DNA of 58,082 nucleotides, taken from Clostridium sp. CAG:508 (GTDB lineage: Bacteria; Bacillota; Clostridia; TANB77; CAG-508). The stretch covers positions 24,466 to 82,547 of the forward strand of contig FR889081.1 in assembly GCA_000435755.1 (NCBI GenBank), in the 5' to 3' direction. The position numbers were made by a program, and so were the translations under genes. The number at the start of each line of letters is the position of its first letter. Within the stretch, counting starts at the first letter, position 1. Shown here one piece after another: positions 23,421 to 48,192 of the stretch. A model generated the notes under the pieces. It was not told the origin of the DNA. It saw only the letters and a list, made by a program, of their open reading frames with translations, and did not search any database.

Positions 23421-26400
23421 TTAAATTACATATTTCTTGATTAAAACTATTCCTCCTGCAATCATGCTTATTGATGCTAATGCAAGTGTAGCATATGTAG
23501 GTGCATTACCTGTTGCAGTAGTTAGGATAACTGGTGCTTCATCGATATCATCTTCTCCTTTTTTGTTATTGCCTGGTGTTGAATCGATATCTGGTGAATT
23601 ATGTTCATTGTAATTTTCATAAATTTCAGCCCAGTTTGTTTTTAATCCCATGTTATTTTTTCCATTTATCCATGTAAGTATTATCTCTACTGTTTGGCTT
23701 TCTCCTGGTTTTATAAGGACATCTTTTAGTTGATCTGTTAGTACTTTTCCATCATCTGTTAATCTCCACTTTGGATTATCCTCTGCAACGAATTTTAGTC
23801 CTTCTGGAATATAGTCTATTATTTCTTTAGCATATCCTTCTATTTCGCCTTCATTCGTTACTTTAATACTAAATTTAAATTTTACAGTAGTTTTATTGAT
23901 TCTGTCTTGACGAATTTCAACTTTTGCTGGTGGCTCTGGATTTTCATCCCCTGTATGTCCTGTTTTAGTAACAGTTGTTTTTCCATTGTATGTTACTATT
24001 GATTCTGTTACCCATTTTTTTAGAGCCAAGTCAAAATATTTTACTTTAATTTTTTCTATATCTTGGTCGTCTTCTTCAGGAACATTGTTATCTGGAGTTG
24101 AGTCAATATCATCAACTTCATTTCCATCTTCATCTGCGTCATCAGCTATTTCTGCTGTATTTATTATAATTCTATCAGATGTATTTGGCTCTGTTACTTT
24201 AAATGCAATTTTTATATCTTTATAATCAGGCATTGTCATTGTTTCAGGATCAAATGCTTTTAATATATTATTTCCTTCAACAGTTTCATTTGCTTTAGAT
24301 AAATAGTTTGTTTTAATAAATTTTGCTTCTTTTACATCAGTAGTTTCAGTTCCATCTTCTTTATACATTTTCCATTTAAATGCAGTGTTTATTGTGTTTT
24401 CTGGTAAGAATTCTAGTCCTTCCGGTAAATTATCTTTAACTTCTTCAGCATATCCTGCCACATTACCTTCATTAAATATTCTTAATGTGTATATAACTGT
24501 ATTTCCATTTGCTACATCAACTGGATCTTTTGGATGTACATATTCATATTTGCCATCTGATGTTTTTGTAAATACTGGTGCTCTGTTTGTAATTTCTTTT
24601 TCATTTACACCTGTGATGAATTTTCTTAATGCTAAATCGAACTTTTTAAGTATCAATTTTTCAAAATCATCGTCATCTTGTTGTCCTGCAATGTATGTAT
24701 CTCCACGTTCTATTTCTGTATCTTTGTATTCTGGTAATGTTTCATCTGTTGGTAATACTACATTTGATTTTTGTGAGTCTCTATCAATTATAGCATTTCC
24801 ATTTTTATCAGTGAAATCTGTAATATCCGCAATATTTGTTATTTTTTCATATAAGCTAATATTGTCTTTTACTTTACATTTAATTTTAACATCAATATAA
24901 TCTAATACATTTCCGTCAAATGCTTTTAATAAAACTTTATCTGTATTGTTTGTTCTATCTTCATAGATTTGGTCTCTACTTGCAAAACTTGATGTTGTAG
25001 AAGATGTTATATTTGTTTTTACTGTTCTTCCATCTTCTGATAAAATCCATCCATATTTTGCATTTAGTTCGTCATCTACTATAAATTCTAATTGTTGTGG
25101 TAAATGGTCTGTTATTTCTGTTACATACCCGTCCAATTGACCTTCATTGTAGACACGAATAGTATATGTTACTATGTCACCATTATATACATTTACTGGT
25201 GTTTTTGGATGATTATATGTTGCTGTTGTTGAGCTTCCGTCTTTTAATGCATCAAGGACAACTTGTGGTTCTCTATTTGTAATTTCTTTGTTATTTACAG
25301 CTGTAATGAATTTTCTTAATGCTAAATCAAAGTATTTTCCAAACATTATTAAATCTTCAAAGTCATCATCGTCTTCTTGGCTTGTTGTACCATAGTTATC
25401 TTTGTTTACGTTATTTGGTTGAGAATCACGATCAATTACAGTTTCATTTCCATCTTTATCTTTATGCGCTGTTATTTCTGCTATATTTTTCAATCTTTGA
25501 TCTGTTGATTGAGTAGGTGCTACTACTTTACACTCAACTTCCACGTCAACATATTTTAATTCTGTTCCATTAAATGCTTCGATTAGTTTGTCTGCTAAAT
25601 AAGCTGTTTTTATTGTTTTTCCATCTCCTGATGGATTTGTCCATCCATAAGTTTGATTTATTGTACTTTCTGTATTTGGTACAAGTTCTAGTCCTGATGG
25701 TAAATAGTCTGTAAGTTCTGTTACATAACCATCTAATTCTCCTTCATTATATACTCTAATTTTGTATATTACCTTGTCGCCTGTTGTTACTGTTAATGGA
25801 TCTTTTGGATGTACTTTATTAACTGTAGTTATAGTTCCATCGGCCAATTTAGTCAATTCTGATGCATCTACTTGAGGTGTTCTATCAACTGATGGTGCTT
25901 GACCATTTATTGATATGATAAATTTTCTTAATGCTAAGTCAAAATGTTTTCCACCCATTATTAATTCTTCAAAATCATCATCATCTTGTTGGCTTGTTCT
26001 ATCATAATTATCTAAATCCACATTGTTTGGTTGTGAATCACGATCAGTTACATTTTCATTTCCGTCTTTATCTTTATGTGCTGTTATTTCTGCTATATTT
26101 TTTAGTTTTTGGTCTGTTGATTGAGCTGGAGCTACTACTTTACATTCAATTTCAACATCTAAATATTTTAGTTCTGTTCCATTAAATGCTGTAATTAATT
26201 TGTCAGCCAAATAACTTGTTTTTATTGTTTTTCCATCTCCTGATGGATTTGCCCATCCATAGGTTTGATTTATTGTACTTTCTGAGCTTGGTATAAACTC
26301 TAATCCTGATGGTAAATAATCAGTAATCTCTGTTGCATAACCATCTATTTTTCCTTCATTATATACTCTAATTTTGTATACTACTTTATCACCATTATTT

Positions 26401-28083: not shown

Positions 28084-28157
28084 TGGAGGCGCCTATCGGA
28101 ATCGAACCGATGATCAGAGTTTTGCAGACTCGTGCCTTACCGCTTGGCTAAGGCGCC
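28084..28157 (-). tRNA. tRNA-Cys (GCA)
   Basis: Reverse complement GGCGCCTTAGCCAAGCGGTAAGGCACGAGTCTGCAAAACTCTGATCATCGGTTCGATTCCGATAGGCGCCTCCA. Cloverleaf with anticodon loop CT-GCA-AA, T-loop TTCGATT and encoded CCA. Confidence 0.9.
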
Positions 28158-28189
28158 AAAAATATTTAATTATAGTCACGAATAAGTTT

Positions 28190-28277
28190 GCTTACCAGCG
28201 ACTCGCTAGCGCTCCCTGCATACTGATGTTGTAACTCACTAGCGTTCGAACAACCTCAGCAGCTTGGCTAAGGTGCC
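28190..28277 (-). ncRNA. GC-rich (~50%) structured element beginning with a tRNA-Cys 5'-end mimic; not foldable as a cloverleaf
   Basis: Minus strand begins GGCACCTTAGCCAAGC, 15/16 identical to the tRNA-Cys 5' end, then diverges. Internal helices GTTGT/ACAAC and TGCTGA/TCAGTA. Internal repeat CGCTAG(T/C)GAGT. Sits between two tRNAs in one transcription unit. Confidence 0.3.
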
Positions 28278-28295
28278 ATTTTTTAATATAAAAAA

Positions 28296-28371
28296 TGGAG
28301 CGGGAAACGGGGCTCAAACCCGCGACCTCTGCCTTGGCAAGGCAGCGCTCTATCAACTGAGCTATTCCCGC
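28296..28371 (-). tRNA. tRNA-Gly (GCC)
   Basis: Reverse complement GCGGGAATAGCTCAGTTGATAGAGCGCTGCCTTGCCAAGGCAGAGGTCGCGGGTTTGAGCCCCGTTTCCCGCTCCA. Anticodon loop TT-GCC-AA, encoded CCA. Confidence 0.92.
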
Positions 28372-44380: not shown

Positions 44381-45658
44381 TTATTTATTAGGTTCAATTA
44401 TTGACAATACTTTATTTTCATTTTTGAACATTTCATTTAAAATATTTTGTGTATATTCTTTTGTTACAGTTTCAAATTCTTCTATATAGTCAAAGCTTTG
44501 AACTTTTTTCATAGTATCTGCTAAAAACATTCTAGCTATATTAGCAACACTATTGTACTCTATAACATAATCACCATAAAGTTTTCTTCTTGCTCTTTCA
44601 AATTCTTCATCATCTAATCCTTGTTGTTTTAGTTGTTCTATTCTATCAGTTATCTTTTGAGCAACTTTTTTAGGTTCTTTTGAAGCTCCTGATATCAATG
44701 TGTGTGCATATTGTGCACTAAATTCATAATCAAAATCTGGTTGTGCTAATAATAATCCTTCTTCATATAATTCCTTATATAGTTTCGAGCTCTTGCCTAT
44801 GATTATATTTAACAATATTTCAATAGCTATATGTTTTTTGATTGCCGCTTCTTGATTGTTTTCAATGTCTTTGTATGCCATCATAAATATTGGTGTACTT
44901 ACTTCCATTTGAGCTATTTTTTCTGGCATATTTATTTTATCTTCTTTTGCAGTATATATTCTTTTTATATCTGCTTGGTTTTCTTTTGGTAATAAACGTT
45001 TTTTAATTTCTTCCAACAATTTTTCTGGTTCAAAATCTCCACATACTACCATTGTCATATTTGATGGATGATAAAATGTGTTATAACATTTATACAATAC
45101 ATCTGGATCTATTTTGCTAATTGATTCTACTGTTCCTGCTATATCTATTTTTATCGGATTTTCTTTATACATACAGTCTAGAGCATTCATATATAATTGC
45201 CAGCCAGGATCATCATCATACATTTTTATTTCTTGGCCTATTATACCTTTTTCTTTTTCAACATTTTCATCTGTAAAATATGGATGTTGCACATAGTCCA
45301 TAAGCTCATCTAGGCCTTCTTCAAAATGATCAGTACATTCAAATAGATATGCTGTGTGGTCATTTGTTGTATATGCGTTTGCATCAATTCCAAGTGCCAT
45401 TAAAGTATCTAAACTATTTGTTCCATCTGGTTGTTCAAACATTTTATGTTCAAGAAAGTGTGCTACTCCATCTGGTATATATACTTCCTCTCCTGTTTTT
45501 GGCATTATAAAGTGATTATCTATTGAACCAAAGTGTGTTCCCCATATTACATATTTCTTTTTTGTATGTTGTTTTGGTATTATAATTACTTGCATACCGC
45601 TTTCTAGTTTTTCAACATATGCTTTTTCTTTAATTTTTGAACTTTCTATAATTTTCAT
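44381..45658 (-). CDS. M16-family (insulinase/pitrilysin-like) zinc peptidase, catalytic subunit
   Basis: Inverted zinc motif HFLEH (GVAHFLEHKMFE) with a downstream Glu. 425 aa. Confidence 0.8.
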   Translation of the reverse strand: MKIIESSKIKEKAYVEKLESGMQVIIIPKQHTKKKYVIWGTHFGSIDNHFIMPKTGEEVYIPDGVAHFLEHKMFEQPDGTNSLDTLMALGIDANAYTTNDHTAYLFECTDHFEEGLDELMDYVQHPYFTDENVEKEKGIIGQEIKMYDDDPGWQLYMNALDCMYKENPIKIDIAGTVESISKIDPDVLYKCYNTFYHPSNMTMVVCGDFEPEKLLEEIKKRLLPKENQADIKRIYTAKEDKINMPEKIAQMEVSTPIFMMAYKDIENNQEAAIKKHIAIEILLNIIIGKSSKLYKELYEEGLLLAQPDFDYEFSAQYAHTLISGASKEPKKVAQKITDRIEQLKQQGLDDEEFERARRKLYGDYVIEYNSVANIARMFLADTMKKVQSFDYIEEFETVTKEYTQNILNEMFKNENKVLSIIEPNK

Positions 45659-45669
45659 CTTTTCACCCC

Positions 45670-46944
45670 TTAGTCTTTTAAAAAATAAATGGTATTGATA
45701 TTTATGTTTTGTGCTAGCTTAACAATTTGGTCTTTTGTTACTGCTTTTATTTTGTCCATGTATTCTTTTAAGTCTACAAATCTATTAGCTAATTCTTGTC
45801 CATAATAATAGGTTATTTCTGTATCTTGTTCTTCTGATATTCCTTCAATAGAAGCTATTATTAGTTCTTTACTGTCTTTGATGTCTTTATCTGTGAAATT
45901 ACCATTTTTCATATCTTCTAGTTGCTGTTTTATTGTATCTAAAGCTTTTTGATAATTTTGTATTTCAATTCCTGCACGAATAAATATACAATTTTTAGTT
46001 CTATTATAGTTTGATCCTGTTGTATATGCTAAACTTGCTTTTTCACGTACATTTTGGAATAATTTCGAGTTTGCTCCTCCACCTAGTATTGCATTATACA
46101 CAGCAGATATAAATCTACTATCTTCTGCTGTTTCATTTATATTTAAGCCAATTACTAGTTTTCCTTGTGTTACTTGCATACTCTCATTTATTATATTTGG
46201 CTCTCTAATTTCTATTTGTTCAGTTGTTTCATTGTTTACAATATACTCAGGTTTTCTAGCATTTAGTTTTTTAATGTTTTCATTTTGTTCTATAGTTTGT
46301 TTTACTTTTTCTTTATCTATAGTGCCTGAATAGAATATATCAATTTTACAGTTATCTATTAATGTTTTGTAGTAGTTATATAATTCTTCTGGTGTTATCT
46401 TCTCTAGGTCTTCTATATAACCATATTTATATAATCCATATGGTTTATCTTTAAACATTTCCTCAATACATCTGTCATAAGCATATCTAGCTTTGTTATC
46501 TATTTTGGCTTCTATAATTTGTTTTAGATTCTTCTTTTCCCCTTCAACATATTCTGGTTTAAATTTGTTAACTTCTATTAATGGATTAAATATTATGTCT
46601 GTTAAAATATCCATTGCTTCTTTTAATATATTTTCTGAAGATGGTAGAAATTCTTCACTTAGTGTTTCTAAATAGAATTTCATAATGTGGTTGTCACCTG
46701 TTTTTTCAACACCACAGTCAAAACTAGCTCCATATAGCATTTCTAATTTTTGACTAATTAAATCTTGTGATGGTATGTTTTTAGTGCCTCTTCTTAATAC
46801 TGCTGTAAGCAGAGCATCTAAAGTTACATTTTCTTTTTTTAGTGGTGTGGCTAAAAATATTGCGTTTAAGTTTGTTTTATAGTTTTCAGTATAAATTTGG
46901 TGTAAAGTTATACCTGGTTTTATTTCTTGTTTTTGATAATTCAT
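45670..46944 (-). CDS. M16-family peptidase-like protein lacking HxxEH (non-catalytic partner)
   Basis: Start reassigned to ATG 46944 (AGGAGA RBS). M16 fold-length protein with no HxxEH motif. Adjacent to the catalytic subunit, the typical M16B pair arrangement. Confidence 0.7.
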   Translation of the reverse strand: MNYQKQEIKPGITLHQIYTENYKTNLNAIFLATPLKKENVTLDALLTAVLRRGTKNIPSQDLISQKLEMLYGASFDCGVEKTGDNHIMKFYLETLSEEFLPSSENILKEAMDILTDIIFNPLIEVNKFKPEYVEGEKKNLKQIIEAKIDNKARYAYDRCIEEMFKDKPYGLYKYGYIEDLEKITPEELYNYYKTLIDNCKIDIFYSGTIDKEKVKQTIEQNENIKKLNARKPEYIVNNETTEQIEIREPNIINESMQVTQGKLVIGLNINETAEDSRFISAVYNAILGGGANSKLFQNVREKASLAYTTGSNYNRTKNCIFIRAGIEIQNYQKALDTIKQQLEDMKNGNFTDKDIKDSKELIIASIEGISEEQDTEITYYYGQELANRFVDLKEYMDKIKAVTKDQIVKLAQNININTIYFLKD

Positions 46945-47061
46945 TCTTTCTCCTCTTTTCTTTTTTAATTCATGTATATTATAATCTAATTTTGGAAAAT
47001 TATTCAAGAGCATTTTTAAGATTTGCGATTTAAAATTATTTGGTAAAATTTGTAAGATGTA

Positions 47062-47090
47062 TTGTAATTGTTACTCATTGTTGATATAAT
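47062..47090 (+). promoter_or_regulatory. Promoter of the small toxin-like ORF
   Basis: TTGTAA (47062-47067), 17 nt, TG-A-TATAAT (-10 at 47085-47090). Confidence 0.55.
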
Positions 47091-47137
47091 GGTCGTATCC
47101 TTTTGCAAAGGAAATCTTTGGAAAGGAGGAAAGTTAT

Positions 47138-47221
47138 ATGACTTCATTTGATTTAATCTGGAAACTCATGGTTTTATTACTTAGTACATATAATGATGAT
47201 GCAGATGACAAAAAAGATTAG
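47138..47221 (+). CDS. 27-aa hydrophobic peptide with acidic tail, Fst-like type I toxin candidate (not in ORF track)
   Basis: AGGAGG RBS 8 nt upstream. ATG...TAG encodes MTSFDLIWKLMVLLLSTYNDDADDKKD. Has its own promoter and terminator. Confidence 0.6.
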   Translation: MTSFDLIWKLMVLLLSTYNDDADDKKD

Positions 47222-47231
47222 AAATAATCTA

Positions 47232-47266
47232 ATAGGAGAGTATGCAACTGCTCTCCTATTTTTTTG
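47232..47266 (+). terminator. Terminator of the small ORF
   Basis: Stem ataggagag (47232-47240) / ctctcctat (47251-47259), then a T-run at 47260-47265. The loop contains TGCAAC. Confidence 0.8.
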
Positions 47267-47336
47267 CAAAAAAATGAACTAAATGTTGCAACCCATTTAG
47301 TTCGAAAGCTATCTGACTTCATTGATAACTTGTGTT
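47267..47336 (-). ncRNA. Candidate ~70-nt convergent small RNA (putative antitoxin) complementary to the toxin translation-initiation region
   Basis: Own promoter (47343-47371) and terminator (stem 47276-47284/47295-47303, with a U-run from A-run 47268-47274). Contains AATGAAGTCA, perfectly complementary to mRNA 47139-47148 (start codon plus codons 2-4). Confidence 0.5.
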
Positions 47337-47342
47337 AAACAT

Positions 47343-47371
47343 AGTATACTACTTTTTTTATTATATGTCAA
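47343..47371 (-). promoter_or_regulatory. Promoter of the candidate antitoxin sRNA
   Basis: Minus strand: TTGACA (47371-47366), 17 nt, TATACT (47348-47343). Confidence 0.5.
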
Positions 47372-47406
47372 ACTAATTTAAATAATTCCTTATATTTTTT
47401 TGGAAA

Positions 47407-47847
47407 TTATTGTAATAATTTTTTAGCAACTTCATTTATTGTTTTTCCGTCTGCTGATGCTCCTAATTTTTCTTTTGCAGTTTTCATTACTAAGCCCATT
47501 TCTTTCATGGATGTTGCGCCTAGTTCAGCAATTATTTCTTTTACTTTTGCTTCTATTTCTTCTGCAGATAATTGTTCTGGTAAGTATTCCTCTAGTATAG
47601 CAATTTCTTGGTTTATTTGGTCTAGCAAATCTTGTCTTCCACTTTTTTCATAATCTACAATTGAATCTTTTCTTTTTTTAGCTTCTTTTGCAATTATTTC
47701 AACTATTTGGTCATCTGAAACTTCTATTTGTTTGTCTTTTTCAACTTGTAGAATAGCAGCTCTAACCATTTGGATAACATTTTTTCTAATTACATTTTTC
47801 TCTTTCATAGAGTTTTTTAAATCGTCTAACAATTTTTCTTTTAACAT
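47407..47847 (-). CDS. yqeY: GatB/YqeY domain protein
   Basis: LKEKLLDDLKNSMKEKN..RKNVIQMVRAAI...EIAILEEYLP is typical of YqeY. Conserved rpsU-yqeY arrangement. Confidence 0.85.
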   Translation of the reverse strand: MLKEKLLDDLKNSMKEKNVIRKNVIQMVRAAILQVEKDKQIEVSDDQIVEIIAKEAKKRKDSIVDYEKSGRQDLLDQINQEIAILEEYLPEQLSAEEIEAKVKEIIAELGATSMKEMGLVMKTAKEKLGASADGKTINEVAKKLLQ

Positions 47848-48163: not shown

Positions 48164-48192
48164 ATTATAACTGTATTGGGTAAATTTGTCAA
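48164..48192 (-). promoter_or_regulatory. Consensus sigma-A promoter of rpsU
   Basis: Minus strand: TTGACA (48192-48187), 17 nt, TATAAT (48169-48164). Followed by a ~70-nt leader with nested stems (CAGT..ACAC..GTGT..ACTG). Confidence 0.65.

Follow-up and report, generated by a model that had tools for sequence, protein, structure and literature searches.

The 58,082-nt stretch of Clostridium sp. CAG:508 DNA analyzed here (contig FR889081.1, forward-strand positions 24,466 to 82,547; hereafter the window, numbered from its first letter) carries a pair of predicted convergent transcription units between yqeY and two successive M16-family peptidase genes, in the 462 nt that separate yqeY from the first of them (Table 1). 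On the plus strand, a promoter is followed by a 5′ untranslated region (UTR), an AGGAGG Shine-Dalgarno sequence, a 27-codon open reading frame (ORF) and an intrinsic terminator; on the minus strand, a second promoter would direct a ~70-nt antisense small RNA (sRNA) with a terminator of its own. An earlier reading of this DNA, made from the letters alone (the sequence-only reading), had listed the same elements and proposed that they form an unannotated type I toxin-antitoxin (TA) module resembling the par locus of plasmid pAD1 and encoding an Fst-type peptide. Both promoters, the ORF with its AGGAGG and both terminators were found where that reading had placed them, the module is unannotated, and Rfam, Pfam and NCBIfam searches gave no match.

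Table 1. Features of the module, its surroundings and related loci. Positions refer to the window unless a locus label of ours (L followed by a number) precedes them.
Feature	Position	Strand	Remark
Whole module	47011..47406	both	insert of ~396 nt between M16 promoter and yqeY stop codon, from comparison with L101
Peptide mRNA promoter	47062..47090	plus	TTGTAA-17-TATAAT, TG before -10 (TG-n-TATAAT)
5′ UTR of peptide mRNA	47097..47137	plus	
sRNA target site on mRNA	47129..47160	plus	repeat copy 1 at 47129-47152; predicted pairing -9 to +23 from A of AUG
27-codon ORF	47138..47221	plus	MTSFDLIWKLMVLLLSTYNDDADDKKD, behind AGGAGG
Small hairpin over stop codon	47215..47230	plus	AGATTA / TAATCT; consensus fold
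Peptide mRNA intrinsic terminator	47231..47267	plus	hairpin 47231-47260; loop UGCAAC, 47243-47248
Predicted antisense sRNA	47267..47336	minus	~70 nt; 5′ hairpin and terminator hairpin; ends inferred from promoter and terminator
sRNA terminator hairpin	47276..47303	minus	loop GGUUGCAA, 47293-47286; U-run to ~47267
sRNA 5′ domain	47304..47331	minus	hairpin 47306-47331; repeat copy 2 at 47304-47326
sRNA promoter	47343..47371	minus	TTGACA-17-TATACT; 11/12 consensus matches
M16 operon promoter	47007-46978	minus	conserved
First M16-family peptidase gene	45670-46944	minus	YfmF-like; ATG at 46944; pairs with second M16 gene
Second M16-family peptidase gene	44381-45658	minus	downstream of module
yqeY	47407-47847	minus	Pfam YqeY, E 1e-45
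Allele A	window and 15 metagenome contigs		
Allele B	L001, L098, L106, L107		variant in L103, L104
Allele C	L105, L113, L114		
CI-like repressor gene	L119:1752-2414	minus	co-directional with sRNA at ~1696-1630 (minus)
153-residue ORF	L121:2897-3358	minus	co-directional with sRNA at ~2662-2600 (minus)
Inserts in yqeY-M16 spacer resembling repetitive extragenic palindromes (REP) or miniature inverted-repeat transposable elements (MITE)	L004:886-1183, L005:3439-3775, L007:2746-3052, L011:3442-3786, L020:2822-3091, L034:3430-3856		

For comparison, 79 loci were obtained through yqeY and 15 through M16 homologues, and distant versions of the module were sought with the concatenated allele peptides as query and then with degenerate DNA patterns. 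Seven alleles were distinguished: A (window), B (L001), C (L105), D (L115), E (L119), F (L121) and G (L122). Alleles A-C share the yqeY-M16 site, D lies beside an excisionase-like gene, and E, F and G are on IMG/VR viral contigs. The layout is the same in all seven: the two promoters converge on terminators lying back to back, the ORF has 27-30 codons, and a repeat spans its start codon.

The sequence-only reading had pointed to a direct repeat that would make the sRNA complementary to the mRNA across its start codon. This repeat is present, with 18 of 20 nt identical between 47129-47148 and 47304-47323 and with a 1-nt bulge that extends the match to GAT at 47152 and 47326. The duplex predicted in allele A between the start region and the sRNA 5′ end has an energy of -24.3 kcal/mol, a value reached by none of 2000 shuffled sRNAs (mean -8.7, standard deviation 2.6). 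All 10 nt in the loop of the sRNA 5′ hairpin (47314-47323, AAUGAAGUCA) can pair without mismatch with mRNA UGACUUCAUU (47139-47148), and the 5′ hairpin loops of alleles B and C also display a core complementary to their targets. The same reading had described the sRNA gene as overlapping a decayed copy of the peptide ORF; similarity to the ORF is found over the ~23-nt repeat and stops there. The antitoxin may, as that reading suggested, have originated when the 5′ part of the toxin gene was duplicated.

Whether this pairing is kept in homologous loci bears directly on its function, and the sequence-only reading had named a lack of conserved complementarity as evidence against it. As RNAduplex returned meaningless long-loop solutions for whole transcripts, restricted-region comparisons were used instead, in which the translation initiation region (-18 to +32) of each allele was set against the sRNA 5′ domain of each in a 7 × 7 matrix. 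Cognate duplexes ranged from -24.3 to -31.3 kcal/mol (mean -29.0), whereas non-cognate duplexes averaged -13.9 kcal/mol (standard deviation 3.7; best -22.0), and the cognate RNA was the best partner in every row and every column. The plus-strand repeat cores, TGACTTCATT (A), TACACCTGAT (B), CAGTTTCGACT (C), TGACATCATTCGA (D), TGTCTTCATTCGA (E), TGACATCTTATGA (F) and TTGAGTTC.TTTGACTTA (G), each occur in both copies of their own allele and in neither copy of any other. Among the 31 mRNA positions between -9 and +25 that are paired in at least two of alleles A-C, 14 show compensatory double changes. Pairing thus co-varies across the seven alleles.

A second contact was predicted between the terminators, whose loops were said to have TGCAAC in common on the plus strand. 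The word is present in both (47243-47248 and 47287-47292), so that the sRNA terminator loop contains GUUGCA, the complement of UGCAAC in the mRNA terminator loop. Within each allele the two loops contain an identical plus-strand word: TGCAAC, CGCTAT and CCCTA in A, B and C, respectively, TGACT in D, E and F, and TGACCAA in G. Loop complementarity is therefore allele-specific in 7/7 alleles, and non-cognate loops have just 2-3 nt in common. The stems that carry these loops show no relation to each other in any one allele and vary from allele to allele; the loops alone are complementary, over 5-8 nt. By a rough estimate of ~0.01 per allele, the chance of five independent loop-word matches is negligible. 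A YUNR U-turn motif was seen by eye in at least one loop of alleles C-G, and in neither A nor B; it was not used as evidence.

The remaining elements of the two transcription units are also maintained. From the position of its promoter, the peptide mRNA would start near 47097. In its predicted fold (-10.7 kcal/mol, z -2.2), UCCUUUU at 47098-47104 pairs with GAAAGGA at 47121-47127 around an inner hairpin at 47106-47120, occluding the Shine-Dalgarno GGAGG at 47125-47129. This 5′ anti-Shine-Dalgarno sequence is invariant in alleles A-C, and sequestration of the Shine-Dalgarno by the mRNA 5′ end is predicted in 7/7 alleles, with a different sequence in E and F. The peptide mRNA promoter is kept in A-C, and D-G have TTGACA/TTTACA ... 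TATAAT/TATATT boxes. The sRNA promoter is 100% conserved in A-C, and TTGACA-17-TATAAT-like boxes occupy the same position relative to the hairpin in D-G, in unrelated contexts without yqeY. Only two terminator-like hairpins occur between 46000 and 48500, where shuffled sequences lead one to expect 0.7: those at 47231-47260 (plus) and 47303-47276 (minus), back to back. Compensatory changes affect 7 of the 11 stem pairs of the mRNA terminator in alleles A-C, and the hairpin over the stop codon is retained in allele C with another sequence (AATTAAC / GTTAATT). The sRNA folds with -18.4 kcal/mol (z -4.1) in allele A; the A, B and C sRNAs each form two hairpins (z -3.8 to -4.1). The sequence-only reading had judged the sRNA to be without a convincing ORF, and the sRNA indeed has no conserved one.

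The 27-codon ORF is under purifying selection, as indicated by a ratio of nonsynonymous to synonymous differences per site (pN/pS) of 0.22 over codons 5-15 (pN 0.15, pS 0.69), where synonymous sites are near saturation. The seven alleles have the N-terminal core M-[ST]-[ST]-[FYP]-D-L-I-W-[KR]-L in common, and D5, L6, I7, W8, L10 and L13 are invariant in 8 variants. Start position, frame and length are kept in the seven alleles, with ATG, GTG and TTG alternating as start codon at one spot behind a strong Shine-Dalgarno, and the length of 27-30 codons also holds across more than 25 further variants. The peptides can best be described as a hydrophobic or amphipathic helix of 10-14 residues containing D5 and K/R9, followed by an acidic polar tail of 11-15 residues rich in D, E, K, N and Q, giving a net charge of -2 to -3. 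The longest run free of D, E, K and R is 4-10 residues. Two other roles for the peptide were rejected. A secreted signaling pre-peptide does not fit, as there is neither a signal-peptide-like N terminus nor an adjacent receptor, and a leader peptide or attenuator of the M16 operon was rejected in view of that operon's own conserved promoter, the absence of the module from close relatives and its movement to unrelated contexts.

The distribution of the module is that of a small insertion. The locus L101, whose flanking genes are 92-94% identical to the window at the nucleotide level, has a yqeY-M16 spacer of just 102 nt, made up of a yqeY terminator and the M16 promoter; in L109 and L110 the spacer is 144 nt. 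Homology between the window and L101 stops past TTCAAG(A/G)G, at ~47010. Because these relatives have only the short spacer, we regard the module as a ~396-nt insertion with presence/absence polymorphism. It is missing at the same site from a sister strain and from neighboring species, and among the 79 genomes retrieved through yqeY, only L001 has a homologous intergenic region, the others having short or unrelated ones. A second copy was looked for in the window, and none was found. In the relatives, spacer length varies from 31 to ~490 nt, with exceptions of ~1.6 kb that contain an extra gene, and L062 has a different synteny at the locus. The spacers of other related species contain unrelated inserts of 150-300 nt with long G+C-rich inverted repeats, resembling REP or MITE sequences, and the yqeY-M16 spacer appears from these comparisons to be a hotspot for small insertions.

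Alleles A and B are 95-100% identical in both promoters and in the 5′ UTR (100% in the sRNA promoter segment), whereas third codon positions of the flanking genes are just 73-84% identical and the core, from the Shine-Dalgarno to sRNA position +10, is only 20-60% identical. In L106 (allele B) and L105 (allele C), yqeY is the same (100% identity) and M16 and the promoter/UTR arm differ little (99.1% and 98.9% identity, respectively), but the identity of the cores is only 59%, which indicates cassette exchange. B-type cores are 91% identical where flanks are 87-90% identical. These patterns of identity indicate that the core behaves as an exchangeable cassette between conserved arms.

The distant alleles place the module on temperate phages as well. 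A first concatenated query recovered over-called ORFs ending in allele D, on contigs L115-L118, where the downstream 178-residue protein is weakly similar to excisionase-like proteins (phrog_575, E 1.6e-4). Allele E (L119, L120) adjoins a CI/LexA-like repressor (phrog_4, E 7e-40), followed by Erf, a replication initiator and a DnaB-like helicase, and allele F (L121), which has a GTG start, adjoins a large serine recombinase; both are phage lysogeny regions. Allele G (L122) has a TTG start, and its 5′ UTR and sRNA promoter are nearly identical to those of A-C. With a second concatenated query, 27 further over-called ORFs were found that contain [MVL]-[ST]-S-[FY]-[DE]-LIWRLI-x-LLLL and then a tail rich in N, D, E, Q and K; one of these is fused behind an HTH_17 (excisionase-type) domain. 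Together with the distant alleles, these ORFs show that the family is widespread, unannotated and partly phage-borne. Neither the DNA nor the peptide had a match among GenBank phages or PLSDB plasmids, and a metagenome scan with a 20-mer from the 5′ UTR returned same-locus contigs only, plus three chance matches. With its presence/absence, cassette swapping and occurrence in phage lysogeny regions, the context of the module resembles that of a selfish element.

How might such a module work? The plus-strand promoter would yield a ~170-nt mRNA for the 27-residue peptide, and the 5′-terminal UCCUUUU of the nascent transcript, by pairing with the Shine-Dalgarno region, would leave the mRNA poorly translatable on its own. 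The convergent promoter would supply a ~70-nt sRNA of two hairpins. Since yqeY is without a terminator of its own in module-bearing loci, its transcripts must enter the sRNA sequence and stop at the sRNA terminator, so that yqeY read-through transcripts probably supply the same sequence as well, at their 3′ end. Recognition could occur at two sites: the two terminator loops, GUUGCA in the sRNA and UGCAAC in the mRNA, would kiss, and the sRNA would nucleate on codons 1-4 through its 5′-hairpin loop, although the order of these steps is our own suggestion. Pairing may then spread over -9 to +23, burying the spacer, the AUG and the first codons and blocking ribosome binding. Should the sRNA supply drop, the peptide would be made and might be expected to harm or arrest the cell, and on prophages this release would favor retention of the element. 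The sRNA gene lies directly downstream of a co-directional gene in three unrelated contexts (a CI-like repressor, a 153-residue ORF and yqeY), and read-through from this upstream gene would add to the supply of antisense RNA.

Among characterized systems, par of pAD1 (Enterococcus faecalis; RNA I/fst and RNA II) is closest in mechanism. Its conserved features are convergent promoters, a shared bidirectional terminator with loops at which interaction starts, sequestration of the initiation region through the direct repeats DRa and DRb, a 5′ stem-loop that hides the Shine-Dalgarno and a 5′ upstream helix (5′-UH); its Fst peptide combines a PXXXG-containing hydrophobic domain with a conserved tryptophan and a tail of charged residues (PMC7472228). 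The module has in common with par the convergent arrangement of peptide mRNA and small antisense RNA, the DNA direct repeats from which complementarity between the sRNA 5′ region and the translation initiation region arises, the predicted second contact between terminator loops, the predicted 5′ structure sequestering the Shine-Dalgarno, a peptide of ~30 residues with a charged acidic C-terminal tail, and copies both on mobile elements and in intergenic regions of the core genome. The par-like layout claimed by the sequence-only reading therefore stands as regards convergent RNAs, start-site repeats and complementary loops, but not as regards the shared bidirectional terminator: where par has one, the module has two terminators with unrelated stems and a loop match of 5-8 nt, analogous in function but different in structure. 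It also differs in having one interrupted repeat instead of DRa and DRb, in displaying the target complement in the loop of the sRNA's own 5′ hairpin, and in the missing YUNR motif in the loops of alleles A and B. As regards the 5′-UH, nt 2-8 of the predicted transcript are paired, with the Shine-Dalgarno region and not in a helix of their own. The claim of an Fst-type peptide found no support. A PXXXG (or D/S/TXXXG) motif and glycine are missing from 8/8 peptides, the hydrophobic segment is much shorter than in Fst, the tryptophan is near the N terminus, and no Pfam or Rfam model matches. The predicted mechanism is par(pAD1)-like, and the module lies outside the Fst family.

By analogy, the next closest system in logic is SprA1/SprA1AS of Staphylococcus aureus, whose antisense RNA gene lies 3′ of the toxin gene and converges on it; the RNA uses a non-overlapping 5′ domain to pair with the ribosome binding site and start codon of the mRNA and repress translation (PMC8594479). 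The 3′ ends of these RNAs overlap, however, whereas those of the predicted module transcripts do not, and the encoded PepA1, a membrane peptide, has a PXXXG(C) motif and a basic tail. In TisB/IstR-1, Zor/Orz and ShoB/OhsC of Gram-negative bacteria, mRNA and sRNA are likewise non-overlapping and complementary over a short region, pairing is orthogonal and paralogue-specific, and the short helical peptides may bear charges; these pairs are divergent, the sRNA being encoded 5′ of the mRNA (PMC8594479), and they have no terminator-loop contact, belong to different phyla and encode unrelated peptides. In biology, the closest analogues are the type I TA systems of Clostridioides difficile prophages (for example CD0977.1-RCd11), because a role of these systems, which lie in lysogeny regions, in prophage stabilization and maintenance has been demonstrated (PMC7699646), while for the module such a role is proposed. 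They resemble the module in having a Clostridia host, in being prophage-borne and in producing small peptides under antisense control, but their toxins have 34-47 residues (PMC7699646), and similarity of the module peptide to them or to any other known family was not detected at the sequence level.

Taken together, the RNA-level reading of a convergent mRNA/sRNA pair with start-codon pairing and complementary terminator loops is strongly supported by the comparative data. Because each element recurs with compensatory changes in six further alleles on other contigs, the predicted elements are functional and not products of chance, and the locus very probably contains a genuine antisense-controlled peptide gene. 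Overall, we read it as a self-contained, horizontally mobile, type I TA-like module regulated like par of pAD1, with a probability of about 0.6. That it is a true type I TA system is, in our estimate, about as probable; the double lock on expression, the occurrence beside mobile-element genes, and the polymorphism in both presence and cassette type would speak for the term toxin-antitoxin.

Several observations weigh against this interpretation. The term toxin-antitoxin is weakened by the low hydrophobicity of the peptides, whose best 19-residue Kyte-Doolittle means are 0.0-1.1, far below the 2.2-2.5 of the characterized type I toxins Fst, TisB, PepA1 and IbsC. The 12-residue helix of allele B contains D, R, E and K and is clearly amphipathic, and a membrane-spanning toxin is not predicted, the hydrophobic segment being too short. 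The peptides gave no match to Pfam-A or NCBIfam at E up to 10, nor to PADLOC or PDB sequences, and for 46900-47500 all Rfam matches with E up to 10 had E of at least 2.6, far under gathering scores. The C-terminal tail seems weakly constrained because a poly-A tract in codons 25-26 (47210-47215) varies among assemblies. It is A6 in the window; A7 in L084, L091, L094, L096 and L095, an error-prone sequence with homopolymer errors, changes the tail to ...DDKKRLEII; A8 in P0121 gives a 48-residue read-through product across both terminators, and P0150 is a like read-through of another allele. This variation could reflect real slippage or phase variation, or assembly error. Promoter-like matches are not enriched in the region (14, against 13.4 in shuffles), and the repeated 10-mer TGACTTCATT, present exactly twice in the window against 0.21 expected, is on its own marginally significant, as 3 of 100 shuffles had at least two copies. 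Finally, the pairing partners are direct repeats, and duplication or gene conversion could account for part of the apparent co-variation; as the source of 5-8-nt islands of identity in the loops of unrelated stems, it is implausible.

The alternative that bears most on these points accepts the RNA mechanism and questions only the toxicity: the peptide may belong to the small proteins with regulatory or accessory ("moron") functions that temperate phages encode. One possibility is an acidic-tailed amphipathic helix with a binding partner among host or phage proteins, its level being set by an antisense RNA dedicated to it. Low hydrophobicity without a predicted membrane span, the clear amphipathicity of allele B, the acidic tail and net negative charge, and the lack of any toxin family match would all fit, and phage lysogeny regions also house many non-toxic accessory genes. 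Yet characterized type I toxins with charged residues in a short helix exist, TisB being one; the two genes form an isolated pair that travels together between chromosome and phages, the pair is polymorphic both in its presence and in its cassette, and the double lock, in which Shine-Dalgarno sequestration is combined with a two-site antisense RNA, is a signature of harmful products (PMC7472228). We take this alternative seriously while regarding it as less likely.

Two further explanations would deny the module one of its RNAs or its peptide. It is very improbable that there is no separate sRNA and that the minus-strand hairpin is simply the yqeY terminator, the repeat and loop matches being remnants of duplication without RNA function. 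In module-bearing loci yqeY indeed has no other terminator, so that the hairpin at 47303-47276 must terminate it, and promoter-like matches are common in AT-rich DNA. However, a TTGACA-17-TATAAT-like box lies at a constant distance from the hairpin in 7/7 alleles, four of them in unrelated contexts without yqeY; repeat and loop sequences vary between alleles and always match within them; and the sRNA promoter segment is fully conserved between A and B against the 73-84% of flanking third codon positions. We give scarcely any weight to the converse idea that the plus-strand transcript is a non-coding or dual-function regulatory RNA whose 27-codon ORF is incidental. In its favor, the ORF has very few codons, the first eight of which are under constraint from RNA pairing as well, and its C terminus tolerates poly-A frameshifts, but such an idea is hard to reconcile with the pN/pS of codons 5-15 and the many synonymous and conservative changes, with three alternative start codons at the same position behind a strong Shine-Dalgarno, and with in-frame indels and a maintained length in all the alleles and variants compared.

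The locus anchors a peptide/sRNA family that is missing from Pfam, NCBIfam, PADLOC and Rfam and present in many gut metagenome assemblies and temperate-phage contigs of gut Clostridia. Its alleles, at least seven with co-varying two-site RNA-RNA recognition, constitute an unusually clean natural experiment in support of a par-type mechanism (kissing loop plus start-site occlusion) outside the Fst family, and show that this mechanism can be built from two separate terminators. The short acidic peptide may work differently from classical membrane toxins, and the cassette swap in near-identical strains points to ongoing exchange between prophage and chromosome. The naturally orthogonal sRNA/mRNA pairs are also possible ready-made parts for post-transcriptional control; engineered devices from type I TA systems are discussed in PMC12721322.

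It is tempting, though doubtful, to see in the family more than one further addiction module: its alleles might be orthogonal "specificity cassettes" that pass between a landing site in the chromosome and temperate phages. Were this so, the peptide, too short and polar for a classical pore-former, may act on a specific cellular or phage target, and the allele-specific sRNA would be a self/non-self key, a resident copy silencing only incoming elements of the same allele. Mismatched alleles would escape, resulting in competition between prophages or between host and phage, or in exclusion. Such an arrangement would explain why near-identical strains have cores only 59% identical and why the pairing sequences diversify faster than neutral sites.

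Several side observations concern individual contigs. P0125 is an over-called ORF of 147 residues in which MTSYDLIWRKYS... is followed, ~55 residues on, by a full MSSFDLIWRLILLLLFSN... peptide, an arrangement that suggests tandem modules or an in-frame copy of the repeat on the sRNA side. Two low-coverage contigs diverge abruptly from the window inside the module, L094 past the sRNA -35 box and L087 past the ORF stop codon; these are probably chimeric assemblies, the alternative being rearrangement at the module borders.

The window as a whole has ~29% G+C, and its genes are almost all on the minus strand. The closest genomes are gut metagenome-assembled "uncultured Clostridia," and one public record names a homologue of the first M16 gene "EF-P 5-aminopentanol modification-associated protein YfmF." At gathering thresholds, the sole Rfam matches of the window are two tRNA genes at 28087-28371 (minus). 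A sigma-70 consensus promoter matching at 12/12 positions lies upstream of rpsU at 48164-48192 (minus).

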